Part shown: positions 10,230 through 59,010 of the stretch, piece after piece
Position numbering within the stretch: the first letter of the stretch is position 1
Layout of the letters: the number at the start of each line of letters is the position of its first letter
Program-made: the position numbers and the translations under genes
Assembly (NCBI GenBank): GCA_037130755.1
Contig: JBAXSI010000002.1
Span: 47,621-111,620 of the forward strand
Source of the DNA: Actinomycetes bacterium
GTDB lineage: Bacteria > Actinomycetota > Actinomycetes > S36-B12
Reading direction: 5' to 3'
DNA: 64,000 nt
Notes under the pieces: model-generated
Seen by the model: the letters and a program-made list of their open reading frames with translations, nothing else
What the model was told of the DNA's origin: nothing
Databases searched by the model: none

Positions 10230-11649
10230 GCCCATTCGCATCGCCAACTGCAGCGGGTTCTTTGGCGACCGCATCGATGCGGCTCGCGAGATGGTCGAAG
10301 GCGGCCCCATCGACGTCCTCACCGGCGACTGGCTCGCCGAGTTGACGATGCTCATCCTGGCACGCCAGAAGATGAAGCACGGCAACGGTTTTGCTCGCAC
10401 CTTCATGACCCAGATGGAACAGGTCCTGGGCACCTGCCTCGATCGTGGAATCCGCGTCGTCAGCAACGCCGGCGGCCTCGATCCCGAAGGGCTCGGGGCG
10501 GCGGTGCATGAGCTGGCTTCGACACTCGGACTCAGCGTGAGTGTGGGTGTGGTCAGTGGCGACGACATCGCACCTCGGCTCGGCGACCTTGCGTCGACCG
10601 GCGAGGAGTTCATCAACCTCGACACCGGCGAGACCATGGCCGGCGCGGGTGTGCACCCGATCACGGCCAATGCCTACATCGGCGGCGAGCCGATCACCGC
10701 GGCACTCGACGCCGGCGCGCAGATCGTGATCACCGGACGCGTGACCGATGCTGCGCTCGTCATCGGGCCTGCGGCCTGGCGCCACGGCTGGGACTACTCA
10801 GCCGCCCGCGCGGGCGACGCGCAGATGCTCGATGCACTGGCTGGCGCACTCGTGGCCGGGCACGTCATCGAGTGCGGCGCGCAAGCCACTGGCGGCAACT
10901 ACGCGTTCTTCACGCAGGTGCCTGGCCTGGAGCACCCGGGCTTCCCCATTGCGGAGGTCGCTGCCGACGGCAGCAGCGTGATCACCAAGCACGAGGGCAC
11001 GGGCGGCATGGTCACTGTGGGCACCGTCACGGCGCAACTGCTCTACGAGGTCGCCGGGCGTGAGTACTTCAATCCCGACGTCACGGCCCTGTTCGACACG
11101 ATCCACCTCGATCAGGTGGGCCGCGACCGCGTGCTCGTGAGTGGGTCGACCGGCGCTCAACCGCCCGAGCGGCTCAAGGTCGCGATGAACTACCTCGGCG
11201 GTTTCCGCAACACGCTGACCCTCGTGATCACCGGGGGACTGGTCGAGGAGAAGGCCGACCTGGCCCTGCGCGCCTTCGCCGGGGTGACGCTGGCGGATGC
11301 CAGTGCACTCGGCGCGGCAGACCTCGCCGCGAAGTCGTCGCTGGAAGTCGCCGAACTGACTGCTCAGCTCCAGCGCAGCCCGCACACTGACCCGGCCCTG
11401 CCCGCCGACGCGCAATCGTTCCTGCGGATCACGGTCAAGGACCCCAACGACAAGGTGGTGGGCAAGGCCTTCACCGAGCCGCTCATCGAGGCGGCGTTGG
11501 CCTCGTACCCCGGCTACTTCCCGACCACGCCGCCGGGTCCAGCTGCGCCGTACGGCGTCTATTGGCCCACCACGGTGTCGCGCGACGCGGTTACGGCGAT
11601 TGCCACGGTCGACGGCGAGCAGGTCTGGTCAGGCGGTGCGTCGTCGTGA
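10222..11649 (+). CDS. AtuA-family (DUF1446) acyclic-terpene-utilisation protein, N-terminal module
   Basis: IRIANCSGFFGDRIDAAREMVEGGPIDVLTGDWLAELTM is the typical AtuA N-terminus. Start ATG 10222 overlaps the end of the alpha subunit. Confidence 0.8.
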   Translation: MAEPIRIANCSGFFGDRIDAAREMVEGGPIDVLTGDWLAELTMLILARQKMKHGNGFARTFMTQMEQVLGTCLDRGIRVVSNAGGLDPEGLGAAVHELASTLGLSVSVGVVSGDDIAPRLGDLASTGEEFINLDTGETMAGAGVHPITANAYIGGEPITAALDAGAQIVITGRVTDAALVIGPAAWRHGWDYSAARAGDAQMLDALAGALVAGHVIECGAQATGGNYAFFTQVPGLEHPGFPIAEVAADGSSVITKHEGTGGMVTVGTVTAQLLYEVAGREYFNPDVTALFDTIHLDQVGRDRVLVSGSTGAQPPERLKVAMNYLGGFRNTLTLVITGGLVEEKADLALRAFAGVTLADASALGAADLAAKSSLEVAELTAQLQRSPHTDPALPADAQSFLRITVKDPNDKVVGKAFTEPLIEAALASYPGYFPTTPPGPAAPYGVYWPTTVSRDAVTAIATVDGEQVWSGGASS

Positions 11650-12101
11650 ACGAGGCAGTCGTGGCACGCCCGCTGGGGACGTTCGTCGGGGCCCGTAGCG
11701 GCGACAAGGGCGGCAACGCCAACGTCGGCCTGTGGATCGTCGACCCAGTTGAGAGCGCGGCCGTCACCTTGGCGCACGGTGGGGTCGCCGCGCTCGAGCC
11801 GGACGCGTCCGCGGTCGCCCTCGCCGATGCGAGGTATGCGTGGCTGCTGACCGTCGTCACTGTCGACGGGATCCGACGTCAGCTGCCCGAGTGCGCCGAC
11901 CTCGAGGTCGATGTTCATCCCTTCCCGAACCTGCGCGCCGTCAACGTCGTGATCCACGGGGTCCTGGGGCGTGGCGTCGCCGAGTCGTCGCGCGTTGATC
12001 CTCAGGCGAAGGGCCTCGGCGAGCATGTCCGTTCGCGACTGGTCGAGATGCCAGCGCGCCTTCTTAGCCCCCTGCTCCCGGAGGACGGTGAGCAGTCGTG
12101 A
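11646..12101 (+). CDS. AtuA C-terminal-domain protein encoded as a separate ORF
   Basis: LGTFVGARSGDKGGNANVGLW resembles the C-terminal part of single-chain AtuA. GTGA overlap with the preceding ORF. Confidence 0.65.
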   Translation: MNEAVVARPLGTFVGARSGDKGGNANVGLWIVDPVESAAVTLAHGGVAALEPDASAVALADARYAWLLTVVTVDGIRRQLPECADLEVDVHPFPNLRAVNVVIHGVLGRGVAESSRVDPQAKGLGEHVRSRLVEMPARLLSPLLPEDGEQS

Positions 12102-12739
12102 CCGCTGAACTGGCGTCGGCCTCCCGTGAGCCGCTCTCCGAGCGCGGCCGGCGCACGCGCGAGCGACTCGTTGCAGCGGCGCGCGCCGTGTTCGAGGAGC
12201 GCGGCTTCGACGCGACGCGAATGAGCGACATTGCGGCAGCTGCGGGCGTCAGCCACGGAACCGTCTACACGTGGTTCCCGACGAAGGAGGACGTGCTGCA
12301 CGCGGCGGTCGACTCGGTGACCGAGGAGATGTACAGCGTCCTCAGCACGCCGGACATCACCGACCCCATCGAGCGGATCTCTGTTGCCAATGCCCGCTAC
12401 CTCGAGGTGCATCGCCAGACCGCACGCCTGATGGAGGTCGTCGCCCAGGCCGCGGTGAACGATGCGTCGTTCCGTGCCGTTCTCACCGACCTCCGACGCA
12501 CGCACGTAGACCGGGTGGCCAAGACCATCGAGAAGCTGCAGAAGGACGGGCACGCTGCCCGCAGCCTCGATCCGCGGATCGCCGCCGCCGCGCTGTGCGC
12601 GATGGTCGAGGGCTTCGCCCGCCACTGGATGGGCGGTCAGGGCGAGCTCGGCCCGGTTGCCCCTGAAGCCCCCGTTGTCCGAACGCTGACCGAACTATGG
12701 GCCCGATCCCTCGGGCTCATCGAACCTGGAGGTAACTGA
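12098..12739 (+). CDS. TetR family regulator embedded in the operon (AtuR-like)
   Basis: HTH RTRERLVAAARAVFEERGFDATRMSDIAAAAGVSHGTVYTWF. GTGA overlap upstream and ATGA-type overlap downstream. Confidence 0.85.
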   Translation: MTAELASASREPLSERGRRTRERLVAAARAVFEERGFDATRMSDIAAAAGVSHGTVYTWFPTKEDVLHAAVDSVTEEMYSVLSTPDITDPIERISVANARYLEVHRQTARLMEVVAQAAVNDASFRAVLTDLRRTHVDRVAKTIEKLQKDGHAARSLDPRIAAAALCAMVEGFARHWMGGQGELGPVAPEAPVVRTLTELWARSLGLIEPGGN

Positions 12740-13887
12740 TGCTGTTCACGGCCGAGCATGAGCAGTTCCGCAAGTCCGTGCGCAAGCTGGTCGAGGAGGA
12801 GATCAACCCGTACGCCGACGAGTGGGAGGCAGCGGAGATCTTCCCGGCGCACGAACTGTTTCCCAAGATAGGTGCCATCGGTGGATTCGGGCTCGAGTAC
12901 GACACCGAGTTCGGCGGCGGCGGCGCTGATCACTCCTTCACCCTCGTGCTTGCCGAGGAGCTCGGCCGTGCCGACGTGGGCGGCGTGCCGATGGCGATCG
13001 CAGTGCAGGCGGGCATGGCCACGCCGGCGCTCGCGCGCTTCGGCTCCGATGAGCTGAAGCGTCAGTTCCTGGAGCCGACCCTGGCCGGCGAGATGGTCTG
13101 CTCCATCGCGGTGAGCGAGCCAGGAGCTGGCTCGGACGTCGCGGGCATCACCACGCGGGCCCGACTCGACGGCGACGACTGGGTGATCAACGGTCGCAAG
13201 ATGTGGATCACGTCCGGCACGCAGTCCGACTGGGTGTGCCTGCTCGCGCGAACGTCCGACGAGGGCGGCTACCACGGCATGAGCATGATCATCGTGCCGA
13301 CGGACACGCCTGGGTTCAGTGTTGGCCGCAAGCTGAAGAAGATGGGCAACAACTCGTCGGACACTGCCGAGCTCGTCCTCGACGACGTTCGCGTTCCCGT
13401 GCGGTACACCATCGGCGAGGAGGGCCGCGGCTTCCAGATGCAGATGGCGCAGTTCCAGGACGAGCGCCTGTGGATCTGTTACATGGCCGTCACCGGTGCG
13501 CGGCGTGCCATCGACCGCACGATGGAGTACCTGCACATGCGCGAGGCGTTCGGCAAGCCGCTGATGGCCAACCAGTACATCCAGTACACGCTTGCTGAGT
13601 TGATCGCCGACATCGATGTGCTGCAGGGGTTCCTCCACCACACCGCCGAGCGGTACGTCGCAGGCGAGGACGTCACGCGCGCGGCGACGGTAGCGAAATT
13701 GCAGGCGGGCCGACTCAGCCGCCGGGTCGCCGACGCGTGCGTGCAGTTCCACGGCGGCATGGGCTATGCCGAGGAGCTGTGGGTGGCGCGCTACTTCCGC
13801 GACTGTCGGCTTGGCAGCATCGGCGGCGGCGCCGACGAGGTGATGCTGCGCATCATCACCGCGCTCGAGGGCATGGGCAAGCGGTGA
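12739..13887 (+). CDS. acyl-CoA dehydrogenase
   Basis: 382-aa ACAD fold, with C-terminal catalytic region QFHGGMGYAEE and GGGADEVM. Confidence 0.9.
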   Translation: MLFTAEHEQFRKSVRKLVEEEINPYADEWEAAEIFPAHELFPKIGAIGGFGLEYDTEFGGGGADHSFTLVLAEELGRADVGGVPMAIAVQAGMATPALARFGSDELKRQFLEPTLAGEMVCSIAVSEPGAGSDVAGITTRARLDGDDWVINGRKMWITSGTQSDWVCLLARTSDEGGYHGMSMIIVPTDTPGFSVGRKLKKMGNNSSDTAELVLDDVRVPVRYTIGEEGRGFQMQMAQFQDERLWICYMAVTGARRAIDRTMEYLHMREAFGKPLMANQYIQYTLAELIADIDVLQGFLHHTAERYVAGEDVTRAATVAKLQAGRLSRRVADACVQFHGGMGYAEELWVARYFRDCRLGSIGGGADEVMLRIITALEGMGKR

Positions 13888-14669
13888 CGTCGCAGGCGGC
13901 AGCGCTGTACGACGTCAGTGCCGGCGTGGCCACGATCACGCTGAACCGGCCCGAGGCTCGCAACCGGCTTGATGCCGAGGCGGTGGCGCTGCTCGTCCAG
14001 CACTTCGACGCGGCAGCGCAGGACCCGGGAGTGCGAGTAGTCGTGCTCACGGGCTCGGGCTCGACATTCTGCGCGGGCGCCGACCTTGCGGCTGCCGCGG
14101 CCGGCGACGAGGCCGGCTTCGCCGGTTCCGGACCTCAGGCGATGGTGCGCCTGCTGACAACGATGCTCGACCACCCAAAGCCGATTGTCGCCAAGGTGCA
14201 AGGGCACGTCGCCGGTGGTGGCAACGGACTGGTCGCCGCGTGCGACATCGCCGTCGCGTCGAGCGACGCGCTCTTCGCCTTCAGCGAGGTCCGGGTTGGT
14301 GTCGCCCCCGCGGTGATCTCCGTCGCGTGCTTGGCGGTGATGGGTCGACGCGATGCGCAGGAGTTGTTCCTGACCGGCGAGCGGGTCGACGCCCAACGGG
14401 TCCGCGAGGCTGGGCTCGTCACGCGAATCGCTCCGCCCGACGCGCTCGACGCGGTCGTGGCCGGGTATGCGGCGCTGCTGATGGCTGGTGGGCCTGAGGC
14501 GCTGGCGAAGGCCAAGAGGCTGATCCGCCGGGTCCCCGGACTGTCGCGTGACGAGGCGTTCGCCGAGACGGCGGAACTGTCGGCGAGCCTGTTCTCCTCC
14601 GCGGAGGCTCACGAGGGGATGACGGCATACCTGGAGAAGCGCCCGCCGTCGTGGACGGCCTCAGCCTGA
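13884..14669 (+). CDS. enoyl-CoA hydratase/isomerase family protein
   Basis: ITLNRPEARNRL, FCAGADL and GGGNGLVAACD crotonase motifs. GTG 13884 overlaps the ACAD stop (GTGA). ORF-track start 13737 rejected. Confidence 0.9.
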   Translation: MTSQAAALYDVSAGVATITLNRPEARNRLDAEAVALLVQHFDAAAQDPGVRVVVLTGSGSTFCAGADLAAAAAGDEAGFAGSGPQAMVRLLTTMLDHPKPIVAKVQGHVAGGGNGLVAACDIAVASSDALFAFSEVRVGVAPAVISVACLAVMGRRDAQELFLTGERVDAQRVREAGLVTRIAPPDALDAVVAGYAALLMAGGPEALAKAKRLIRRVPGLSRDEAFAETAELSASLFSSAEAHEGMTAYLEKRPPSWTASA

Positions 14670-26661: not shown

Positions 26662-27819
26662 GTGCCCGACTTCGATGTTGACGCAATAGACCTAGCCGAA
26701 CTCCGCACGCGCCGCAGCGCGAAGTGGCGCGAGTTCCCGCCGGACGTGCTGCCCTCGTGGGTCGCCGAGATGGACTTCCCACTCGCGACACCCATCGCCA
26801 CCGCGCTGCGCAATGCGATCGACCGCTCCGACACCGGATACCGCTCCTTGCTGGGCCTGCCACAGGCACTGTCGCTGTTCGCGGCCCGTTCGTGGAACTG
26901 GTCGGTGGACCCGGCCGACGTGCTGGTCGTGCCGGACGTGGTCTCCGGACTCGTGCATGCCGTCAACGTCTTCACCGAGCCGGGCGACGGGGTCGTCATC
27001 AACCCGCCCGTCTATCACCCCTTCTTCATGGTGGTGGACGACGTTACGCACCGGACCGTGGTCGAGGTCCCGATGGCTCGCGCCGACGACGGCAGCTACT
27101 CCCTGGACCTCGATGCACTGGCACTGGCGTTCGCGCGCCCTGACGTGACGGCGTACATCCTCTGCAGCCCCCACAACCCCTCCGGCAGCGTGCCGACGCG
27201 CGCAGAACTGGAGACGATCAGCTCGCTCGCCGAGCAGCACGGCGTTGCCGTGATCTCCGATGAGATCCATGCACCCCTCGTGATGCCTGGCGCCCAGCAC
27301 GTGCCGTACCTGACGGTCGCTCCCGATCATGCCCGGGCAGTGACCGTGATCTCCGCGTCGAAGGCGTGGAACATCCCCGGCCTGAAGTGCGCGCAGATCG
27401 CTACGACGCCCGAGGTGTCCGCCGAGTTCGCGCGTCGGTTGCCGCTGGAGATGTCGTTCGGCACAGGGCACTTCGGGGTGATTGCGCAGATCGCCGCGTA
27501 CATGGACGGAGCAGAGTGGCTTGAGCAGGTCGTCGGGATCCTTGACGGGAACCGTCGCCTCCTGACGGAGTTGCTGGCCGCCCGGCTGCCGCTTGCGGGC
27601 TACGTCACACCACAGGCCTCCTATCTGGCCTGGCTCGACCTCGCCGCTTACGGGCTGGGCGATGACCCCGCTGAGGTGATCCGCGAACGGGCGCAGCTGG
27701 CCCTCAGTCCCGGCCTGAGCTTCGGCAGGCAGGGTCGAGGCTTTGCCCGACTGAACTTCGGGACGTCCCCCGTTCTGGTGGCCGAGATTGTCGATCGGCT
27801 GGCTTCCGTGGTGCAATAG
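26662..27819 (+). CDS. class I/II aminotransferase of the MalY/PatB C-S lyase type
   Basis: AEMDF, NPHNPSG and SASKAWNIPGLK (PLP lysine) are typical of cystathionine beta-lyase PatB/MalY. Confidence 0.8.
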   Translation: MPDFDVDAIDLAELRTRRSAKWREFPPDVLPSWVAEMDFPLATPIATALRNAIDRSDTGYRSLLGLPQALSLFAARSWNWSVDPADVLVVPDVVSGLVHAVNVFTEPGDGVVINPPVYHPFFMVVDDVTHRTVVEVPMARADDGSYSLDLDALALAFARPDVTAYILCSPHNPSGSVPTRAELETISSLAEQHGVAVISDEIHAPLVMPGAQHVPYLTVAPDHARAVTVISASKAWNIPGLKCAQIATTPEVSAEFARRLPLEMSFGTGHFGVIAQIAAYMDGAEWLEQVVGILDGNRRLLTELLAARLPLAGYVTPQASYLAWLDLAAYGLGDDPAEVIRERAQLALSPGLSFGRQGRGFARLNFGTSPVLVAEIVDRLASVVQ

Positions 27820-40675: not shown

Positions 40676-42487
40676 GTGCGCCGTGCCGTGATCGCCCTGC
40701 TGTCCATGCTGATGGCGGCTGCGCTGGTCGGAGTGCCGACGGCAGCCAACGCCGACGCACCGCCGCCCAAGAAGGTGGCCAGCGGGTGGATGCCGTACTG
40801 GATGACGTCACCTGCTCATCCCCAGGGCGTCAACTCCGCCGTGCAGAACGCCGGGATCTTCACCGACGTATCGCCGTTCTGGTACTCAGCCACCGGGAAG
40901 CCGGGCGGCGGCGTTCAGGTGGGACTCAACCCCAACTTCACGAACGGCAAGGCCAACGCTGCGTGGGCCATGGGCCAGCTCAAGGGCGCCGGACTGGTGG
41001 TTCTCCCGTCGATCGCCGACGGATCCGGCAGGGGCCGCATGGCCGCGACTCTCGCCGATCCGGCGCTGCGGGCGGCCCACATCGGCGACATCGTCAACAC
41101 CGTCATGAGCAACGGCTACGACGGTATCGACCTCGACTACGAGACGTTCGCCTTCACCGACGGTCGGGGGTCGTGGGCGGCTACTCAGCCGAACTGGACC
41201 GCCTTCATCAACGAGCTCGCTGCGGCGTTGCACGCGCAGGGCAAGCAACTGTCCGTGACGATCCCGCCTCCGTGCACCTCGAGCGGCGTCTGCGGTCCGA
41301 CAGCGGGCTACTCGGTCTACAACATCGCAGGCATCGCACCGGCCGCTGACCGGATCCGGATCATGGCGTACGACTACCACGTCGGCGCCGCTGGTCCGAT
41401 CGCGCCGATGCCGTGGGTGCGCGCCATCGTGTCGTACTCCGTGTCGGTGATGGATGCGGCGAAGCTGCAGATCGGTGTGCCGACGTACGGTCGTGCGTGG
41501 GGTGTCAAGAAGGCTTCCGGTGGCTACCAGACGTCGGGAACCTGTCCGTCGACCAGCTCGGCCGCCTACAAGTCGCTGGTCTCGTCGCAGTCGGTCAACG
41601 ATGCCGACGTCCCGGCACTTCTCGCGTCCGTCGGCAAGACCGATGCCGACGTCCAGTGGGCGCCGACGGAACAGGAGAACGTCCTCTACTACGACAAGAC
41701 ACTGCAGTGGACGGACTCATCCGGTGCCGCCCAGACCTGCAAGGCCAGTCGAGTCCTGTGGTTCGTGGGGCCGCAGGCCGTGCTGGCCCGCACGCAACTG
41801 GTCGGCGAGTTCGGGATCAACGCCGCCGCCTACTGGACCGTGGGCGGGGAGAACCCGGCACAGTGGGCGCTGCTGGGCAGCTACGGCCAGTCCTTGGCTC
41901 CGGCGAGCACGGACATCTCCATTTCGGGCACGCCGGCCGTCGTCTACGGGTCGCCCATGACGGTGACGGCCGTGGTGTCGTCTCGTGGCGTACCGGTGGT
42001 GGGTGCGGCTGCGACGGTGCAGTTCCTCCCGACCGGCAGTAAGAAGTGGACGGACGTGCAGGCGGCCACGACCGCTCCCGACGGGACCGTGTCGTTCCAG
42101 GTGCAGCCGCAGTCGACTGGTGACTGGCAGGTCTTCGTTCCTGGCGCGCCTGGTCGCGTCGACGGGACCAGCACTCCGTTCACCACTCAGGTCATCGCGT
42201 TGGTGTCGGCCACGCCCGTGGCCACCAAGGTGAAGGCGAAGTCGACGATCATCGTGAAGGTGCTCGTGCAGCCAGCCATGCGTGGCCAGAAGGTCGCGCT
42301 GCAGATCAAGCGTGGCGACGGCTGGCGCAACGTCGCGCGCGGCACCACCAACGCCCGCGGTCGGGACAAGCTGCGCGCCGAGGCGCCGAAGGTGAAGGGC
42401 CTGTACGTCTACCGGGTGGTGGCCGTGGGCCAGCAGTCCATCCTGTCGGGGGCCTCGAACGAGTTCCCGATCCGCGTCACGAAGTAG
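40676..42487 (+). CDS. secreted glycoside hydrolase family 18 protein with two C-terminal Ig-like domains
   Basis: Signal peptide. GH18 catalytic motif YDGIDLDYE. The C-terminal ~200 aa are beta-rich repeats. GTG 40676; ORF-track start 39863 rejected (antisense to dacB). Confidence 0.8.
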   Translation: MRRAVIALLSMLMAAALVGVPTAANADAPPPKKVASGWMPYWMTSPAHPQGVNSAVQNAGIFTDVSPFWYSATGKPGGGVQVGLNPNFTNGKANAAWAMGQLKGAGLVVLPSIADGSGRGRMAATLADPALRAAHIGDIVNTVMSNGYDGIDLDYETFAFTDGRGSWAATQPNWTAFINELAAALHAQGKQLSVTIPPPCTSSGVCGPTAGYSVYNIAGIAPAADRIRIMAYDYHVGAAGPIAPMPWVRAIVSYSVSVMDAAKLQIGVPTYGRAWGVKKASGGYQTSGTCPSTSSAAYKSLVSSQSVNDADVPALLASVGKTDADVQWAPTEQENVLYYDKTLQWTDSSGAAQTCKASRVLWFVGPQAVLARTQLVGEFGINAAAYWTVGGENPAQWALLGSYGQSLAPASTDISISGTPAVVYGSPMTVTAVVSSRGVPVVGAAATVQFLPTGSKKWTDVQAATTAPDGTVSFQVQPQSTGDWQVFVPGAPGRVDGTSTPFTTQVIALVSATPVATKVKAKSTIIVKVLVQPAMRGQKVALQIKRGDGWRNVARGTTNARGRDKLRAEAPKVKGLYVYRVVAVGQQSILSGASNEFPIRVTK

Positions 42488-44216
42488 GCGGGGCCAGCAG
42501 GCTGACGGCAGGCAGTTCGAACCACTGCAGCGATCGGAAGTCCTCGGACAGTCCCGTCGTGGCGGAGTCGCCGATCTCGTCAGTCAGGGCGTCGAGCAGG
42601 TCGCGCGCCTGCACTAGGTAGTCGGCCAGCGCGGACTCCGGTGCCCTGTCGTTCTGCTCGGGGTAGCGGAGCACGCCGGCCGGGTCGTAAGTGAGGTCGG
42701 TCAGGCGAAGTGGCGGCTCGACGGCGCCGTCGCGGTGGTGCCACCGCCCGGAAGTCGCATCGAACCGGTACTGCGGGGTGAGCTTCCAGCCCTGCTCGGC
42801 GACGAGGTCGACGGCCGACACGATGTACTCGAAGACCGCGTCCGAGATGAAGTAGTTGAAGTTCACGCGGACCCATCCGGGCTTGATGCCCTCGCAGCCA
42901 TGCGTGATCTCGCGCTCGAACTCGTGGCTTCGGGCGATGTCGATGCCGAGGAGTCGGTGGCCGTAGGGGCCGGCGCAACTGCACCCGCCGCGGGCCTGAA
43001 TCCCGAACAGGTCGTTGAGAATCGCCACGACGAGGTTGTGGTGCATGAAACGGCCGCCGGGCCGTCGGATCACGAACGAGACGATCGACAGCCGCTCGGC
43101 GTTGCGATTGCCGAGGATGTCGATGGCGGAGTTTGCCGACCACGCCGCGATAGCGCGATGAACGAAGTCCTCCTCGTGCGCTCGGATCACGTCGACGCCC
43201 ACGGCATCCTTGAGCTGGAAGACCAGTCCCGCTCGGATCGACTCGACGATGGCGGGAGTGCCGCCCTCCTCGCGATGCTCGGCGTCCGTGAGGTACTGGT
43301 GATCCTCAGGGTTGACGTAGGCGACGGTGCCGCCACCAACGACGTCGGGCACCGAGTTCGACAGCAGCTCGCGCCGAACGATGAGGACGCCAGGGGTTCC
43401 GGGTCCGCCGATGAACTTGTGCGGGGACAGGAAGATCGCATCCTTGTAGGCGAGCGGGTGCTCGTCGCACCGCGGCATCATGTCGATGTCGACGTACGGT
43501 GCGGCCGCGGCGTAGTCCCAGAACGCCAGCGCGCCGTGCTCGTGCAGCAGCTGGCTCACGGCGTGGGTGTCCGTGACGATGCCGGTGACGTTGCTGGCGG
43601 CGCTGAACGAGGCGATACGGAGCGGGCGATCGGCGTACGCGTGCAGTTGCCGTTCGAGCTCGGCGAGATCGATGTGACCGTCGGAGTCCTCGCGGATGGT
43701 GACGACGTCGGCGATCGTCTCGCGCCACGGAAGTTCGTTGCTGTGATGCTCGAACGGCCCGATGAAGATGACGGGTCGCTCGTCGGCGGGGATGTGAGCC
43801 GACAGGCCGTAGGCGCTGTCCAGGTCGGCGGGCAGGCGCAGGTTGAGGATCCCGACGAGGCGGTTGATGGCGGCGGTCGATCCGGATCCGCAGAAGATGA
43901 CGCAGGTGTCTGCGTCGCCGTTGACTGCCTCTCGGATGATGCGTCGGGCATCCTCGCGAAGCCGCGTGGTCTGAAGGCCGGTGCCGCTCGACTCCGTGTG
44001 CGTGTTGGCGTAGCGGGGAAGTACCTCGGCTCGGATGAAGTCCTCGATGAAGGACAGGGCGCGCCCGCTGGCGGTGTAGTCGGCGTACGTGACGCGTCGG
44101 GCACCGAACGGGCTGGTCATGACCTGGTCGTCGCCGATGACGCTGGCCCGGATCCGCTCGAGCAGGGCGGGCTCCGGCAGGCTAGGAGCACGCCCGGGGA
44201 TGTTGACTGCTGGCAC
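42477..44216 (-). CDS. class V aminotransferase-fold PLP enzyme, cysteine-desulfurase-like, with a C-terminal extension
   Basis: PLP-lysine context FLSPHKFIGGPG and a SufS-like Cys loop ARGGCSCAGPY. 579 aa. Confidence 0.75.
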   Translation of the reverse strand: MPAVNIPGRAPSLPEPALLERIRASVIGDDQVMTSPFGARRVTYADYTASGRALSFIEDFIRAEVLPRYANTHTESSGTGLQTTRLREDARRIIREAVNGDADTCVIFCGSGSTAAINRLVGILNLRLPADLDSAYGLSAHIPADERPVIFIGPFEHHSNELPWRETIADVVTIREDSDGHIDLAELERQLHAYADRPLRIASFSAASNVTGIVTDTHAVSQLLHEHGALAFWDYAAAAPYVDIDMMPRCDEHPLAYKDAIFLSPHKFIGGPGTPGVLIVRRELLSNSVPDVVGGGTVAYVNPEDHQYLTDAEHREEGGTPAIVESIRAGLVFQLKDAVGVDVIRAHEEDFVHRAIAAWSANSAIDILGNRNAERLSIVSFVIRRPGGRFMHHNLVVAILNDLFGIQARGGCSCAGPYGHRLLGIDIARSHEFEREITHGCEGIKPGWVRVNFNYFISDAVFEYIVSAVDLVAEQGWKLTPQYRFDATSGRWHHRDGAVEPPLRLTDLTYDPAGVLRYPEQNDRAPESALADYLVQARDLLDALTDEIGDSATTGLSEDFRSLQWFELPAVSLLAPPTS

Positions 44217-44280: not shown

Positions 44281-44565
44281 GTGTCTGTTGCCCCCGCCGA
44301 AGTGGAGCGGCCTGAGGTCGACGAGGCGACGGACCGGCCGTGGATCACGATCGTGTGGAACGACCCGGTGAACCTCATGTCCTACGTGACCTACGTGTTC
44401 ATGACCTACTTCCACTACGACCGCGCCAAGGCCGAGTCGCTGATGCTCGACGTCCACGAGAAGGGCAGGGCGGTCGTGTCCAACGGCAGTCGCGAGGAGA
44501 TGGAGCGCGACGTCACCGCGATGCACGGCTTCGGGCTGTGGGCGACCATGCAGAAGGACGACTGA
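44281..44565 (+). CDS. clpS: ATP-dependent Clp protease adaptor ClpS
   Basis: [41 protein letters not shown]. Confidence 0.9.
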
Positions 44566-45110
44566 TGGGGCGGCCGTACGGCTTCTCCCGAGGCCGCCGC
44601 CGTGAGCTGCGGATCAACCTCGAGCAGGTCGAACGCGAGCTGCTGCTCTCGCTCGCCAAGCAGCTGATCGCCTTCGTCGAGCCGGACCCCGTGTCCGCGG
44701 ATGCCGATCCGCTGGCGACCATGGTCGGCATCGACCTGTCCGCGGAGACACCGGACGATCCGGCCTTGGCCCGACTGCTGCCGGACGCCTTCATCGACGA
44801 CCCTGATGCGGCGGTGGAGTTCCGTCGTTTCACCGAGCGGGACCTGCGCGCAGGGAAGGTCGCCAATGCGACCACCGTCGCGACCGACATCGAGGCCGGC
44901 CTCGACGTGCTGCCGGACGATCACGTCGCTGCCTGGCTCGGCTTCCTCAACGACACGCGACTGGCGCTGGGCACGCGAATCGAGATCACCGAGGACAACC
45001 ACGACGAACTCGACGCACTCCCGGACGAGGATCCGCGCGCCGGGATGTTCCACGTGTATGACTGGCTGACCTACCTGCAGGACTCGTTGGTGCAACTGCT
45101 GCTGCCCTAG
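44565..45110 (+). CDS. DUF2017-like protein (conserved ClpS neighbour)
   Basis: ATGA-type overlap with clpS. Acidic 181-aa protein in the same position as the mycobacterial Rv1332-like gene. Confidence 0.7.
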   Translation: MGRPYGFSRGRRRELRINLEQVERELLLSLAKQLIAFVEPDPVSADADPLATMVGIDLSAETPDDPALARLLPDAFIDDPDAAVEFRRFTERDLRAGKVANATTVATDIEAGLDVLPDDHVAAWLGFLNDTRLALGTRIEITEDNHDELDALPDEDPRAGMFHVYDWLTYLQDSLVQLLLP

Positions 45111-45113
45111 GGT

Positions 45114-45536
45114 GTGCCGGTGCTCGTCATCCGCCAGGACCTCGTTGACGCCATCGTCGCCCATGCGCGCGCCGATCACCCCGACGAGGCGTGCGGGGTC
45201 GTGGCCGGTCCGTCTCCGGATCAGCCGGAGCGCTTCATCCCGATGGTCAATGCCGCTCGGTCCCCGACCTTCTACGAGTTCGACTCCACGGACCTGCTGC
45301 GCCTCTACCGCGACATGGACGACCGTGACGAGGTGCCGTCCGTGATCTACCACTCCCACACCGCCACCGAGGCGTATCCATCGCGCACTGATGTCTCGTA
45401 CGCGTCCGAGCCCGACGCCCACTACGTGCTCGTCTCGACCCGGGAGACCGGTAACGCTGCTGGACCGGCCGAGTTCCGGTCCTTCCGCATCGTCGACGGA
45501 GAGATCACCGAGGAACCGGTCGAGATCGTGGACTAG
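45114..45536 (+). CDS. mec: JAMM/MPN+ metalloprotease (Mec-type, CysO C-terminal processing)
   Basis: EACG plus the HSHTATEAYPSRTD (HxHx7Sx2D) JAMM motif. Confidence 0.85.
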   Translation: MPVLVIRQDLVDAIVAHARADHPDEACGVVAGPSPDQPERFIPMVNAARSPTFYEFDSTDLLRLYRDMDDRDEVPSVIYHSHTATEAYPSRTDVSYASEPDAHYVLVSTRETGNAAGPAEFRSFRIVDGEITEEPVEIVD

Positions 45537-45563
45537 GGCCGCGCGCCTACCCGTTCTGCAAAG

Positions 45564-45593
45564 GGTTCGCATGTGCGAACCTGCTACAGCAGG
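45564..45593. promoter_or_regulatory. two abutting palindromes GGTTCGCA-TG-TGCGAACC and CCTGCT-AC-AGCAGG
   Basis: Perfect arms read directly, 28 nt after the mec stop and just upstream of the putative cysO promoter. Confidence 0.45.
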
Positions 45594-45596
45594 TCG

Positions 45597-45622
45597 GGAA
45601 TGCCAGTTCCTAATCTGGCGTT
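45597..45622 (+). promoter_or_regulatory. SigH/SigR-type promoter GGAAT-N18-GTT upstream of cysO-cysM
   Basis: GGAAT at 45597-45601, an 18-nt spacer, and GTT at 45620-45622, 44 nt before ATG 45666. Confidence 0.5.
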
Positions 45623-45665
45623 CCCTGTCCACAGTCCCGCACCACCCCCTGATCCTGGAGCAGCA

Positions 45666-46888
<1,223 letters not shown>

Positions 46889-48491: not shown

Positions 48492-48899
48492 TCATGCTCC
48501 CTTAACGGTCAGCCCAAGCTCGCGCGCCCCAGCGGCCTGCCGGCTATCGAAGGTGACGAAGTTCGCCGTGGTGCCGAGTGCCCGTTGAGCCGACGCCACG
48601 TGAATCGCGTCGAGTGATCGAAGCGCCGTGCGCTCGGCGAACTGCGCCGCGAGCTCGCATACCTGCGCGTCGGCCTCGATGACGAACATCAGCGACAGAT
48701 CCTGCATGAAGAGCGTCTTGGCCATGCCGCGCTCGACTGGATTCTCGATGCGCGAGATGCCTCTGCGCACTTCGACTACGGCGACCCGCGAGGTGAAGAT
48801 GCCGCCGGCGTCGTCGAGGAGTCCCTGGGCCGCATCCGAGTCCGGCTCATCCAGGTAGCGCTTGAGCAGGGCGCTGCTGTCGACATAGGCGGGCATCAC
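48492..48899 (-). CDS. vapC: PIN-domain toxin VapC
   Basis: N-terminal YVDSSALLKRYL with acidic D/E residues, plus DAIHVASA. 135 aa. Confidence 0.85.
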   Translation of the reverse strand: MMPAYVDSSALLKRYLDEPDSDAAQGLLDDAGGIFTSRVAVVEVRRGISRIENPVERGMAKTLFMQDLSLMFVIEADAQVCELAAQFAERTALRSLDAIHVASAQRALGTTANFVTFDSRQAAGARELGLTVKGA

Positions 48900-49156
48900 T
48901 CGGCCCGGTCATCGTCAAGCAGCGCAGCAACGGACGCGGAGGCCTGGTAGCGGGGCACCGTGGGAAGCGGTCCGCGCTTCTCGGGCGGAGTAATCCACCC
49001 CTCCGACAGGCCCAGGTCGACATTCGAGAGGTAGTTGGGCGGCACCAGGTGTGCGGTGACACGACCGCGATCTGTGATCGTGACTACTTCCCCTTGGCTC
49101 ACCCGTCGCAGACACTCAGAGAAATGTGCCCTGGCCTCGCGAATCCCGACGTTCAT
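48896..49156 (-). CDS. Phd/YefM-type antitoxin (VapB role)
   Basis: MNVGIREARAHFSECLRRVSQGEVVTITDRGRVTAHLVP. 4-nt overlap with vapC. Confidence 0.8.
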   Translation of the reverse strand: MNVGIREARAHFSECLRRVSQGEVVTITDRGRVTAHLVPPNYLSNVDLGLSEGWITPPEKRGPLPTVPRYQASASVAALLDDDRAE

Positions 49157-51085: not shown

Positions 51086-51167
51086 TGCGGGAGAAGGGAG
51101 TCGAACCCTCACGCCCGAAGGCACACGGCCCTAAACCGTGCGTGGCTGCCTATTACACCACTCCCGC
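51086..51167 (-). tRNA. tRNA-Leu (anticodon UAG)
   Basis: Manual cloverleaf: acceptor GCGGGAG/CUCCCGC, anticodon stem CACGG/CCGUG with loop UUUAGGG, long variable arm, T-loop UUCGACU. No encoded CCA. Confidence 0.85.
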
Positions 51168-56030: not shown

Positions 56031-56402
56031 GTGGCCGCGAGTGCACACGAAGTCGTGACGTCCCCCGACACCACCCCGAACCCCGACGGTTCGGTCCCGA
56101 TCAAGCTGCTCCACGATCGCGTCCTCGTGCACGAGGACAACGACGGCCGCGAGCGCAAGTCGCTTGGCGGGATCGTCATCCCGGCCACCGCGCAGGTCGG
56201 CCGCAGGCTCGCCTGGGCCAACGTCGTAGCGATCGGACCGAACGTTCGCAGTCTCGAGGTGGGCGACCATGTGCTGTTCGAGCCGGAGGACCGCGGGCTC
56301 GTCGAACTCCAGGGCATCGAGTACGTCCTGCTGCGCGAGCGAGATGTCCATGCCGTGGCAGTGGAACGTGACCAGTCGTCCGGCACCGGTCTGTATCTGT
56401 AG
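56031..56402 (+). CDS. GroES/Cpn10-fold protein (orphan; no groEL adjacent)
   Basis: IKLLHDRVLV...GGIVIP...VVAIGP...VGDHVLF follows the Cpn10 pattern. Start uncertain (56031 or about 56055). Confidence 0.65.
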   Translation: MAASAHEVVTSPDTTPNPDGSVPIKLLHDRVLVHEDNDGRERKSLGGIVIPATAQVGRRLAWANVVAIGPNVRSLEVGDHVLFEPEDRGLVELQGIEYVLLRERDVHAVAVERDQSSGTGLYL

Positions 56403-56407
56403 GTGAC

Positions 56408-57289
56408 GTGACAGAGACTCCACTGCGCCGACCGGTGCTCGTCGGTGGGACTGGTCGCAGTGGTTCCACGATCGTGGGCCACCTGCTCGACAACCACCCC
56501 GATCTGACGCTGACCCGCCCGATGGAGGTCAGGTTCATCGCCGGGCATCAGGGGCTCGCGGACGCGCTGGCGAAGGCGCAGCGCAAGCCTGGCAGCTCCG
56601 AGGCGACGGCGGCCGCGCAGTTGGCAGTGGACCGGCTGCTCAACCGGTGGTTCTACCGCGCCGAGCACGTGGGGCTGCACGAGTCGATGTCGAAGGACGA
56701 GGTCGAGGAGTGGTCGAAGGACTATCTCGCGACGTTCGGCACCGACGCGGTGACGGCCACCCGCACGTTGACCGATCGCATCATGGCGCGCATCGCGGCG
56801 CGGCTGAATGCCACGCGCCTGGTCGACACCACTCCGGCCAACGCCCGCAAGGCCGATCGGCTCGAGCCCATCTATCCGGAGTCCAAAGTCGTCATGGTGA
56901 CCCGCGACGGCCGCGACGTCTCCGCGTCGTTCGTCAGTCAGAGCTTCGGGCCGGACGACGTGTTCGAGGCGCTCGACCAGTGGGAGGCACGCATGCTGGC
57001 CTCGCATCGCGCGGCGGCACGGTGCCGCGCCGACCGGATCCTGACCTTCGAGCTCATGGACCTCGTGGTCCGTGACCGAGCAGTCACGCTGGCCCGACTG
57101 TGCGACTTCCTCGGCGTGCCGGTCGACCCGGCGATGGTTGCGTGGTTCGACGAGAACGTGACGAGCGATGGCATGCACCCGGGCCGTTGGCGTCGGGACT
57201 TCGATGACCAGACAGGTGCACGCATCGATGAGCACTATGCGGCCGCCTGCGCGCGCTTAGCGGCTGAAGGCGTCCCGATCCCCTCCTGA
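56408..57289 (+). CDS. sulfotransferase family protein
   Basis: 5'-PSB-like loop GTGRSGSTIVGHLL and 3'-PB-like VTRDGRDVSAS. Confidence 0.7.
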   Translation: MTETPLRRPVLVGGTGRSGSTIVGHLLDNHPDLTLTRPMEVRFIAGHQGLADALAKAQRKPGSSEATAAAQLAVDRLLNRWFYRAEHVGLHESMSKDEVEEWSKDYLATFGTDAVTATRTLTDRIMARIAARLNATRLVDTTPANARKADRLEPIYPESKVVMVTRDGRDVSASFVSQSFGPDDVFEALDQWEARMLASHRAAARCRADRILTFELMDLVVRDRAVTLARLCDFLGVPVDPAMVAWFDENVTSDGMHPGRWRRDFDDQTGARIDEHYAAACARLAAEGVPIPS

Positions 57290-57349
57290 CGGGGGGCGTT
57301 TTGCCGCGAACGGGGCGAGTGTGATTACATCTGCCTCACAACTGAATAC

Positions 57350-57469
57350 CTCATCCAGAGGGGCAGAGGGATACGGCCCGTTGAAGCCCCGGCAACCTTT
57401 TCGGTGACTCTCGCGTGCGAGGCCGCCCGAAAGTGGTGCCACTTCCGACCTGAAACCAGGGCAGATGAG
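57350..57469 (+). promoter_or_regulatory. SAM-I (S-box) riboswitch
   Basis: P1 CTCATC...GATGAG. Conserved cores CAGAGGGGCAGAGGGA, CGGCCCGTTGAAGCCCCGGCAACC and GGTGCCACTTCCGACC. RBS AGAGAGG lies directly after the 3' P1 strand; ATG at 57485. Confidence 0.85.
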
Positions 57470-57484
57470 AAGAGAGGCCTCGTC

Positions 57485-58738
57485 ATGACTGTTCAACTGA
57501 CCAACCCCTCGCTGGGATCGGCGTACGCGCTGAAGTGCCGCGAGTGCGGCGCCACCACCGAGCTCGACGCCAGCTACGCCTGCATGGAGTGCTTCGGCCC
57601 CCTCGAGGTGGCGTACCACCCCACCGCGATCACGCGCTCGCAGATCGAGGCGGGTCCGCTGTCGATGTGGCGCTATGAGGCGCTGCTGCCGGTGGTGCCC
57701 GGGGCCGGTGGCCGGCCGGGTCTGCAGCCGGGCCTGACCAAGCTCGTCCGCGCGGACAACCTGGCTGCGGCGCTGGGTGTGAAGACCCTCTGGGTCAAGG
57801 ACGACTCGGGTAACCCGACGCACTCCTTCAAGGACCGCGTGGTTGCCGTGGCGCTGGAGAACGCGCGGCGGCTGGGCTACGGCACCATCGCCTGCGCGTC
57901 CACCGGCAACCTCGCCAACGCGGTGGCAGCTGCCGCATCGCGAGCGGGTCTCAAGTCCGTCGTCTTCGTGCCGTCAAATCTCGAGGCCGGCAAGATCGTG
58001 ACCACCGCCGTCTATGGCGGCACGCTGGTCGCCATCGACGGCAACTACGACGACGTCAATCGGCTGTGCAGCGAGGTCGCGTCGTCGCGTGACTGGGGCT
58101 TCGTCAACGTCAACCTCCGGCCCTACTACGCCGAGGGGAGCAAGACGGTCGGCTACGAGGTCGCCGAGCAGCTGGGCTGGCGCCTGCCAGATGCCGTCGT
58201 GTCGCCGGTGGCGTCCGGCTCGCTCCTGACCAAGGTCGACAAGGCGTTCCGCGAGTTCGTCGAGCTCGGTCTGGTCGACGAGCACGAGTACCAGGTCTTC
58301 GGGGCGCAGGCCACGGGCTGCTCGCCGGTCGCGCAGGCGTTCCGTGCTGGGCACGACGTCATCCGCCCGGTCAAGCCCGACACGATTGCGAAGTCACTCG
58401 CCATCGGGAACCCTGCCGACGGGCCTTATGCGCTCGACGCCGTCCGCCGCACCGGTGGGGCAGTGGCTGACGTCTCGGACGACGAGATCGTTGGGGGGAT
58501 CAAGCTGTTGGCGCAGACCGAGGGCATCTTCGCCGAGACTGCAGGCGGGGTCGTGGTGGCCACCTACCGCAAGCTCCTGGCCGAGGGCCTCATCGATCCG
58601 GCCGCAGAGACCGTGCTCCTGAACACCGGCGACGGACTGAAGACGCTCGACGCGGTCGCCCCGACATCGCAGCCCACGTTCACGATCTCCCCGTCCTACG
58701 ACGACTTCGAGGACAACTACACCGAGGTGACCTCATGA
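57485..58738 (+). CDS. threonine-synthase-fold PLP enzyme (candidate homocysteine synthase, MetM-like)
   Basis: N-terminal Cys4 ribbon CRECG...CMECFG. PLP lysine HSFKDRV. ThrC-like throughout. Under SAM riboswitch control. ORF-track start 57404 lies inside the riboswitch and was rejected. Confidence 0.85.
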   Translation: MTVQLTNPSLGSAYALKCRECGATTELDASYACMECFGPLEVAYHPTAITRSQIEAGPLSMWRYEALLPVVPGAGGRPGLQPGLTKLVRADNLAAALGVKTLWVKDDSGNPTHSFKDRVVAVALENARRLGYGTIACASTGNLANAVAAAASRAGLKSVVFVPSNLEAGKIVTTAVYGGTLVAIDGNYDDVNRLCSEVASSRDWGFVNVNLRPYYAEGSKTVGYEVAEQLGWRLPDAVVSPVASGSLLTKVDKAFREFVELGLVDEHEYQVFGAQATGCSPVAQAFRAGHDVIRPVKPDTIAKSLAIGNPADGPYALDAVRRTGGAVADVSDDEIVGGIKLLAQTEGIFAETAGGVVVATYRKLLAEGLIDPAAETVLLNTGDGLKTLDAVAPTSQPTFTISPSYDDFEDNYTEVTS

Positions 58739-59010
58739 GTATCGCCGTCAAGGTCCCGACCATCCTCCGCACGTACACCGGCGGCGTCGCCGACGTGACG
58801 GTCACAGGCGCAACGCTCGCCGAGGCGCTGACGGACCTCGACACGCAGTACCCGGGAATCGGCGCGCGGGTGCTCGACGACGAGGGCAAGCTGCGTCGTT
58901 TCGTGAACGTCTACGTCAACGACGATGACGTGCGGTTCCTTGAGGACCTGCAGACGCCCACGCCGGATGGCACGAGCATCTCGATCATCCCGGCGGTTGC
59001 CGGCGGCTGA
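58735..59010 (+). CDS. MoaD/ThiS-fold sulfur-carrier protein (second copy, MetO-like), C-terminal GG
   Basis: 91 aa ending in AVAGG. ATGA overlap with the ThrC-like gene. About 56 of 90 positions are identical to CysO at 45666 by manual alignment. Confidence 0.85.
   Translation: MSIAVKVPTILRTYTGGVADVTVTGATLAEALTDLDTQYPGIGARVLDDEGKLRRFVNVYVNDDDVRFLEDLQTPTPDGTSISIIPAVAGG

Follow-up and report, generated by a model that had tools for sequence, protein, structure and literature searches.

The closest described counterpart of the system considered here is the MetM/MetO pathway of Streptomyces albulus. In published summaries of that pathway, MetM is a homologue of threonine synthase (ThrC) that is often misannotated, MetO is the carrier, and Mec and MoeZ are helpers (PMC12172450; GapMind 2026, citing Hasebe et al. 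2024). Both summaries name as the source of MetM and MetO in S. albulus the work of Hasebe, Adachi, Maruyama and Hamano (2024, Appl Environ Microbiol 90:e01247-24). As outlined in PMC12172450, a S-adenosylmethionine (SAM) riboswitch lies upstream of S. albulus metM, metO adjoins the gene, and Na2S served to mimic MetM activity. The entry for MetM in GapMind 2026 reads "MetO-thiocarboxylate-dependent", and a 2026 preprint also gives a description of the pathway. We analysed a 64,000-nucleotide stretch of DNA from contig JBAXSI010000002.1 of an actinomycete (the window), in which a SAM-I riboswitch precedes a metM-like and a metO-like gene. Judged from sequence, this metM-metO operon probably encodes, under control of the riboswitch, a MetO-thiocarboxylate route from O-phosphohomoserine to homocysteine. 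The pathway itself is already published, and the window presents the same system in a new, uncultured host. The features of the locus are as follows.

57348..57471, + strand: SAM-I aptamer, with P1 at 57350-57355/57464-57469, P2 at 57360-57364/57386-57390, P3 at about 57391-57440 and P4 at about 57449-57462
57417..57424, + strand: conserved GCGAGGCC motif, situated 3' within the apical region of P3; it may supply the 5' strand of a pseudoknot resembling PK-2
57472..57477, + strand: Shine-Dalgarno (SD) sequence GAGAGG, read from the sequence, 2 nucleotides past the 3' strand of P1 and 7 nucleotides before the AUG
57476..57487, + strand: GGCCUCGU(C)AUG, running from the final two bases of the SD sequence through the spacer to the start codon; can pair with 57414-57424
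57485..58738, + strand: metM-like gene for a 417-amino-acid enzyme of ThrC fold that depends on pyridoxal 5'-phosphate (PLP); PF00291, Cys4 N-terminus, K116 and the motif N-V-N-L-R-P-Y-Y-A-E-G
58735..59010, + strand: metO-like gene for a 91-amino-acid sulfur carrier of ThiS/MoaD fold ending in AVAGG before the stop; PF02597, E 7.5e-15

The RNA upstream of metM corresponds to the SAM-I family. A search with Rfam cmscan matched RF00162 at 57348-57471 (+); the score is 73.7 bits, the gathering score being 44.4, with E values of 2.3e-15 when the entire window is searched and 1.1e-17 locally, and the match covers model positions 1-108, which is the full length. By Rfam, the core is that of SAM-I, with an internal P4, and P1 is formed by CUCAUC (57350-57355) and GAUGAG (57464-57469). 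A HMMER search with the metM product against 1.84 billion cluster representatives gave 13,837 matches at E<=0.001 and 1,838 at E<=1e-30, and a one-genome-per-species scan returned the best 80 loci, which are the relatives referred to below. We built a custom covariance model from 25 metM leaders and ran it on 81 sources, namely the window and the 80 relatives. It found exactly one match per locus, directly 5' of metM, in 81 of 81 sources (59-130 bits), and RF00162 was confirmed at both loci that were cross-checked with Rfam (L005 and L061). When the SAM-I structure is laid on the 81 sequences, 97.3% of the cells are paired, as against 39-53% in slid controls. Double changes occur in 12 pairs (143 cells), the observed values were reached by none of 500 shuffles, and the covariation falls in P2, P3 and P4. 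The minimum-free-energy folding z-score of the leader is only -0.66, so the energy of a single sequence is uninformative here and we rely on covariation instead. By sequence, therefore, the window RNA is a bona fide SAM-I aptamer, and SAM binding and repression are predicted for this copy.

The metM start codon is the ATG at 57485, and P1 and the AUG are 15 nucleotides apart in the window. In all 81 loci the 3' strand of P1, GAUGAG, is followed by a purine-rich SD sequence and then by a start codon 12-30 nucleotides after P1. A consensus scan, which detects classical terminators only, showed no intrinsic terminator and no sigma-70 promoter near the aptamer. Since 15 nucleotides leave no space for a terminator hairpin and none was found, translational control is the best reading of the locus, and the switch most likely blocks translation initiation; the anatomy is observed directly, and the mechanism is read from that anatomy. 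An initial annotation, made without database searches, had proposed a SAM-I core with P1 CUCAUC/GAUGAG, a ribosome-binding site abutting P1 ahead of ATG 57485, and translational control. The segments that it quoted are present and RF00162 supports them, the ribosome-binding site is the GAGAGG 2 nucleotides after P1, and the conserved layout and lack of a terminator are consistent with the type of control that it favoured.

The product of the metM-like gene is a PLP enzyme of fold type II (PF00291, E 5.5e-72, residues 83-382). In an alignment with 11 homologues of 44-62% identity, C18, C21, C33 and C36 and the lysine K116 of the SFKDR motif are invariant. In NCBIfam it is matched best by models for threonine synthase, and the Zn-ribbon-type model PRK08197 scores 277, below its cutoff of 303. 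The nearest solved structures are all threonine synthases, namely those of Aquifex (2zsj, E 2.9e-52), B. subtilis (6cgq), T. thermophilus (1uim) and M. tuberculosis (2d1f), with identities of 32-35% (155 bits and 33% for 2d1f). An AlphaFold2 model (pLDDT 87.9) likewise has only ThrCs of 32-35% identity as its best PDB matches, and no MetM-type structure was present among the sequence and structure matches from the PDB. The alignments to solved ThrCs start only at query residues 61-80, and the N-terminal 60-80 residues, with the Cys4 cluster, have no counterpart there. Cysteate synthase was considered as an identity and rejected, with TIGR03844 at 71.8 bits against a cutoff of 324.9.

One difference from ThrC lies in a conserved motif. 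In alignments to 2zsj and 6cgq, the ThrC motif N-P-Y-R-[IL]-E-G-Q-K-T is replaced by R-P-Y-Y-A-E-G-S-K-T in the window protein, so that the ThrC arginine becomes Tyr215 and a new arginine, Arg212, appears three residues earlier. We take the arginine of N-P-[YF]-R-x-E-G-Q to be Arg160 of T. thermophilus ThrC, a ligand of the substrate phosphate. All 80 related loci have a replacement of the R-P-Y-Y-A-E-G-S type, as do most representatives of 50%-identity clusters down to about 42% identity, and a representative at 38% identity keeps the ThrC form of the motif. The genetic context is also not that of threonine synthesis, as the gene is accompanied by a SAM riboswitch and a sulfur carrier, with no hom or thrB nearby.

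The carrier gene is translationally coupled to metM in the window. The metM stop TGA (58736-58738) overlaps the metO ATG (58735-58737) in a 4-nucleotide ATGA at 58735-58738. The best solved relatives of the window MetO are the CysO proteins of M. tuberculosis (3dwg_C, E 1.2e-25) and Amycolatopsis (A. orientalis, 4n6e_B). MetO is 53% identical to M. tuberculosis CysO and 62% identical to a CysO encoded elsewhere in the window, and it is closer than that CysO to 55 of 64 MetO proteins of other loci. MetO proteins of the relatives end in GG at 44 loci, as in the window, in GGC at 15, in GGS at one, and in three-residue tails after GG at three. The GGC ends belong to loci L037, L042, L044-L046, L049, L050, L055, L056, L060, L061, L073, L075, L076 and L078, and the GGS and tailed ends to L051, L039, L041 and L071. 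Extra residues after GG would require trimming of the Mec type, so the need for Mec presumably varies between lineages; such ends fit the Mec requirement reported for S. albulus. The window MetO already ends in GG, and therefore Mec is probably not needed for its maturation.

Linkage of the three elements is conserved well beyond the window. The best 80 loci encode proteins 62-87% identical to the window MetM, and all are from Actinomycetota: 27 Streptomyces species, Kitasatospora, Streptosporangium, Nonomuraea, Actinomadura, Kribbella, Nocardioides, Lentzea, Blastococcus and many metagenome-assembled genomes (MAGs). A SAM-I aptamer lies directly 5' of metM in 80 of these 80 loci, and a metO homologue directly 3' of it in 65. 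The window MetM is 62-66% identical to the riboswitch- and metO-linked orthologues of the 27 Streptomyces species. Among five more distant representatives (50-62% identity), a ThiS gene lies downstream in three and a SAM-I riboswitch upstream in three, and the linkage is retained in representatives of 53-62% identity. Clustered at 90% identity, the Streptomyces orthologues form groups as large as 1,810 members, in which every named member is called "threonine synthase". A protein identical to that of the window is present on metagenome contigs from fresh water, and also in an NCBI MAG under the name "threonine synthase [Actinomycetes bacterium]". The metM module is thus widespread and systematically misnamed. 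The S. albulus protein was not among the cluster members listed for 10 Streptomyces orthologues, and for that reason orthology to it is drawn from the synteny conserved across the genus.

Other genes near metM in the relatives show what is and is not part of the module. Conserved neighbours in the 80 loci are otsA/otsB, a gene resembling glucosyl-3-phosphoglycerate synthase, cspA and groEL, and no conserved Mec or MoeZ helper stands beside metM in these loci. Eleven loci (L014, L018, L024, L034, L038, L047, L048, L063, L064, L074 and L084) keep the SAM-I riboswitch, have no adjoining metO, and carry a cspA-like gene and groEL downstream. In genomes that lack metO, the sulfur donor may be a shared CysO or sulfide. 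At L085, a 56%-identical relative with no riboswitch, a small protein with a NIL domain (3826-4062, +; PF09383) is encoded after the metM-ThiS pair. The NIL domain PF09383 also occurs at the C-terminus of MetN, and the L085 protein may be a protein-based alternative for methionine sensing.

A second carrier system is encoded about 12 kb upstream of metM-metO. Window genes were called by codon-usage score and all were scanned against Pfam, with precomputed Pfam hits for 47.5-59 kb.

44302..44565, + strand: clpS, at the head of the mec-cysO-cysM cluster
44538..45110, + strand: DUF2017 gene, between clpS and mec
45114..45536, + strand: mec-like JAMM/MPN hydrolase; PF14464 (Prok-JAB), E 1e-29, with the motif HSHx7SxxD
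45666..45938, + strand: cysO, 90 amino acids, ending in AVAGG; ThiS, E 3.2e-19
45941..46888, + strand: cysM, 315 amino acids; PALP, E 3.1e-70; TIGR01136, 352 against a cutoff of 344

The window CysM matches M. tuberculosis CysM (3dwi, 3dwg and 3dki) with E of about 1e-145. By sequence resemblance, cysO-cysM is a paralogous thiocarboxylate module for cysteine. We take the clpS-DUF2017-mec-cysO-cysM block (44302-46888) to be syntenic with M. tuberculosis Rv1331-Rv1336, within a longer block that presumably extends to Rv1341. The mec-like protein resembles desampylase, scoring below the cutoff for that family, and it is possible that it serves as a shared helper for both carriers, its role with MetO being conjectural. 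Adjoining the cluster is a class-V aminotransferase of 579 amino acids (42477-44216, -; PF00266, E 2e-40) that resembles SufS and cysteine desulfurases, far below all NCBIfam cutoffs, and might mobilise sulfur for the carriers. Downstream of cysM are murI, an MBL-fold gene, a PIN/PhdYeFM pair, RNase PH and Ham1; the pair, a PIN-domain toxin with a PhdYeFM antitoxin (48492-49156, -), separates the MBL-fold gene from RNase PH as an insertion in a block whose synteny is otherwise like that of M. tuberculosis.

The proposed working of the operon draws on the S. albulus system through orthology. A MoeZ-type activating enzyme (E1), encoded elsewhere in the genome, would adenylate the C-terminal Gly-Gly of MetO and turn it into a thiocarboxylate. 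MetM, a PLP enzyme of threonine synthase descent, would then carry out a gamma-replacement on O-phospho-L-homoserine with MetO-COSH as the sulfur nucleophile, so that phosphate would be replaced by sulfur and the resulting homocysteine would lead to methionine and SAM. Abundant SAM is expected to bind the aptamer and lock P1, as has been shown for this RNA family, and the SAM-bound switch would block translation initiation at the SD sequence, with metO following through translational coupling at the ATGA.

The leader may hold a further control element. The apex of P3 is otherwise unalignable and varies from 17 to 91 nucleotides, and within it GCGAGGCC complements a conserved GGCCUCG(C/U) between the SD sequence and the AUG. 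In the window, RNAduplex pairs 57414-57424 with 57476-57487 through 11 pairs and one bulge, at -18.9 kcal/mol. The P3 motif, allowing at most one mismatch, is present in 42 of the 71 loci whose P3 is at least 30 nucleotides long, where shuffling expects 5, and its position is always 9-14 nucleotides ahead of the 3' end of P3. The P3 and tail motifs co-occur (both in 39 loci, P3 only in 3, tail only in 10, neither in 28; Fisher 4e-10, uncorrected for phylogeny). Pairing between the tail of a locus and its own P3 is also better than pairing with P3s taken from loci whose tails are unrelated; this was so in 54 of 60 loci and for 35 of 41 distinct tails (Wilcoxon 1e-6). Compensatory variants include GCGGAGAC/GUCUCCGC at L007, ..GGUC/GACC.. 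at L034 and L040, and GGGCGGGG/CCUUGCCC at L027.

Other tests speak against such a pseudoknot. Motif-anchored pairing reaches 85.3% versus 83.9% in shuffles, the covariation score is no better than that of shuffles, and the pairing is absent in distant relatives with a short P3. Per-locus z-scores against shuffled tails are weak (median -0.57), and the positive tests were cross-locus energy and motif co-occurrence only, both of which are confounded by shared ancestry. Because covariation is weak and the short-P3 relatives lack the pairing, we keep the pseudoknot as a hypothesis. Going by sequence complementarity, it is possible, and on balance rather doubtful, that metM SAM-I leaders of Streptomyces, of the window lineage and of several other actinomycete families carry an extra PK-2-like pseudoknot from the P3 apex to the stretch between SD and AUG. 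If it forms, GCGAGGCC would pair with GGCCUCGU, and the ribosome site would be buried once the RNA has folded with SAM bound.

Several results weigh against a MetM/MetO pathway at this locus. The 417-amino-acid protein passes the thrC equivalog model TIGR00260 with 269.6 against a cutoff of 167.1, which is why pipelines name it ThrC, and every public record of these proteins says "threonine synthase". A Pfam scan found no ThiF or rhodanese E1 in the 64-kb window. Fifteen of the 80 relatives have no adjoining metO, with cspA and groEL or a contig end following instead, so the carrier may be non-obligatory or shared. Orthology to the characterised S. albulus MetM, finally, is drawn from the synteny of 27 other Streptomyces species. 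The passed model, the public names and the ThrC structures as best matches would all suit a genuine threonine synthase, in which case the riboswitch would lower threonine synthesis at high SAM and the small protein would be an unrelated MoaD/ThiS carrier. However, a ThrC repressed at high SAM would send more O-phosphohomoserine to methionine, which is the reverse of feedback logic. The altered N-P-Y-R motif, the carrier directly downstream in 65 of 80 loci and overlapping metM by 4 nucleotides in the window, and the distance from the housekeeping ThrC of M. tuberculosis (2d1f) also argue against it, as does a Streptomyces orthologue group that, by synteny, would hold the experimentally defined MetM. 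We therefore regard a threonine synthase as very improbable. No more credible is a different sulfur product, or a different gamma- or beta-replacement product, made by a cysteate-synthase-like or O-phosphoserine-dependent pair that is incidentally under SAM control. A Cys4 N-terminus is common to ThrC relatives of the cysteate synthase type, TIGR03844 gives a weak match, and a sulfotransferase gene stands directly upstream of the riboswitch. Yet that match lies far below its cutoff, the sulfotransferase is not conserved as a neighbour, and the genes under SAM-I riboswitches are overwhelmingly those of methionine and SAM.

Two further alternatives leave homocysteine as the product and concern either the sulfur donor or the regulatory step. 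The enzyme could be a MetM-type O-phosphohomoserine sulfhydrylase that takes its sulfur from free sulfide or from a different carrier, for instance CysO, with MetO dispensable or an alternative donor. Relatives that keep the riboswitch and lack an adjoining metO, the 62%-identical CysO 12 kb away in the window, and the use of Na2S to mimic MetM activity as outlined in PMC12172450 all speak for this possibility. We consider it unlikely nonetheless, given the ATGA overlap in the window, a metM-metO adjacency that persists down to 50% identity, and the wording of the GapMind 2026 entry. Regulation could also be transcriptional, for example through Rho-dependent or non-canonical termination, with the P3-tail complementarity being inherited sequence that has no structural role. 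The terminator scan would detect only classical terminators and the pseudoknot covariation is not significant, both of which leave room for such a mechanism. In contrast, the 15-nucleotide gap between P1 and AUG is too small for a terminator hairpin, the 8-nucleotide motif is kept inside a P3 apex of 17-91 nucleotides that is otherwise unalignable, and a few compensatory P3/tail variants exist, and so transcriptional control, too, seems improbable, if somewhat less so than a MetO-independent donor.

The MetM/MetO route thus stays our preferred reading, and it agrees with most of what the initial annotation had said of the proteins. A threonine-synthase-fold PLP enzyme with SFKDR and Cys4 is borne out by PF00291, K116 and the four cysteines, and the ATGA-coupled, 91-amino-acid MoaD/ThiS-fold protein ending in GG by the overlap at 58735-58738, PF02597 and the AVAGG terminus. 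The homocysteine route from O-phosphohomoserine that it proposed, under the names MetM/MetO, is the published S. albulus system, and the identities of 62-66% to the Streptomyces orthologues, as against 32-35% to ThrC, point the same way. Its remark that this chemistry had been described in a few actinomycetes understates how common the system is, as all 80 best loci are riboswitch-linked and 65 are metO-linked. It had also said that the E1 and any C-terminal processing are not encoded beside the pair. No E1 adjoins the operon or occurs in the window, and the statement on processing is true of the immediate neighbourhood, but a Mec homologue is encoded at 45114-45536, 12 kb upstream, together with the second carrier module, cysO-cysM.

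The remaining genes of the window offer little further methionine metabolism. Besides the metM-like gene, the Pfam scan found no thrC, thrB, hom, metX, metY, metE or metH in the 64 kb. A PatB/MalY-type aminotransferase resembling C-S lyases (26662-27819, +; TIGR04350, 308 bits against a cutoff of 340) is possibly a cystathionine beta-lyase, and is the sole other candidate methionine-pathway gene in the window. Upstream of the riboswitch (56031-57289, +) are a second, divergent Cpn10/GroES-like gene (123 amino acids) and a gene of the Sulfotransfer_3 family; in Streptomyces relatives groEL sits 3' of metM-metO, and the sulfotransferase is a non-conserved neighbour. ARAGORN reported a tRNA-Leu(UAG) at 51086-51167 (-), which Rfam run locally also gave, its 45.7 bits exceeding the gathering score, but which the Rfam scan of the entire window missed under default filters. 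A third ARAGORN call, tRNA-Cys at 3602-3696 (-), lies inside the alkB-rubredoxin open reading frame, has no match at the gathering score in the whole-window Rfam run, and is probably false. That reading frame (2760-4151, +) encodes a membrane fatty-acid-desaturase/AlkB-type hydroxylase with a fused C-terminal rubredoxin domain and is followed by a TetR regulator. A catabolic cluster of the acyclic-terpene/leucine type (6547-14669, +) comprises genes for a carboxyltransferase, biotin carboxylase, AtuA and AtuA-ferredoxin-like proteins, TetR, acyl-CoA dehydrogenase and enoyl-CoA hydratase.

Because the pathway is already published, the main value of these findings is practical, lying in the correction of annotation and metabolic reconstruction and possibly in a compact, pseudoknotted expression platform. 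Thousands of actinobacterial "threonine synthase" entries, that of the window MAG included, would really be riboswitch-controlled homocysteine synthases, and overlooking MetM would lead metabolic reconstructions for uncultured actinomycetes of fresh water and soil to predict methionine auxotrophy wrongly. One organism would route the synthesis of both cysteine (CysM/CysO) and homocysteine (MetM/MetO) through protein thiocarboxylates, and one may then ask in what way a single E1 and a single Mec attend to two carriers sharing 62% identity. If the pseudoknot is real, the aptamer itself would constitute the entire translational expression platform, of 15-25 nucleotides, the structural boundary between SAM-I and SAM-IV would be blurred, and these leaders would provide a minimal model of a thermodynamically controlled translational switch.

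Two groups of known RNAs bear comparison with the leader. Translational SAM-I riboswitches (e.g. SAM-I Xcc, PMC7270179) share with the window a SAM-I core and control at the SD sequence, but the window has no separate anti-SD hairpin and its whole expression platform spans 15 nucleotides. The proposed pairing of the P3 loop with the 3' tail would mirror PK-2 of SAM-IV and SAM-I/IV, whereas the SAM-I class is defined as lacking a pseudoknot of the PK-2 type, and PK-2 is used to tell SAM-IV from SAM-I.

Among enzymes, ThrC (2zsj, 6cgq, 1uim and 2d1f) and the window MetM have a common fold (TM-scores of 0.8-0.86, target-normalised, for the AlphaFold2 model), a common PLP lysine motif and, as predicted for MetM, the same substrate, O-phosphohomoserine. 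Unlike the window MetM, ThrC has no Cys4 N-terminal domain, carrier partner or SAM riboswitch. The CysM/CysO/Mec system of M. tuberculosis (Rv1336/1335/1334; 3dwg), in which a protein thiocarboxylate attacks a PLP-bound intermediate of the aminoacrylate type derived from an O-phospho amino acid, may be likened to MetM/MetO in its chemistry. CysM, however, belongs to the cysteine synthase family and not to ThrC, performs beta-replacement on O-phosphoserine to give cysteine, and has no riboswitch; an orthologous mec-cysO-cysM cluster is also present in the window. In Wolinella succinogenes, according to what Krishnamoorthy and Begley reportedly described in 2011, homocysteine sulfur comes from the thiocarboxylate of a ThiS-like protein in the HcyS/HcyD/HcyF/MetY system. 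Unlike the window, that system is said to use as acceptor MetY (fold type I, O-acetylhomoserine), to mature its carrier proteolytically and to keep its helper genes clustered.

The nearest system remains that of S. albulus, which has, like the window, a ThrC-homologous PLP enzyme, an adjacent ThiS-type carrier and an upstream SAM riboswitch. An O-phosphohomoserine substrate and the encoding of Mec and MoeZ elsewhere are taken, by analogy, to be alike in both. The window differs in that its host is known as the MAG of an uncultured, high-GC actinomycete. Its metM and metO overlap by 4 nucleotides, compared with 11-180 nucleotides between the two genes at other loci, and its MetO ends in GG, whereas that of 15 relatives ends in GGC and would need trimming.

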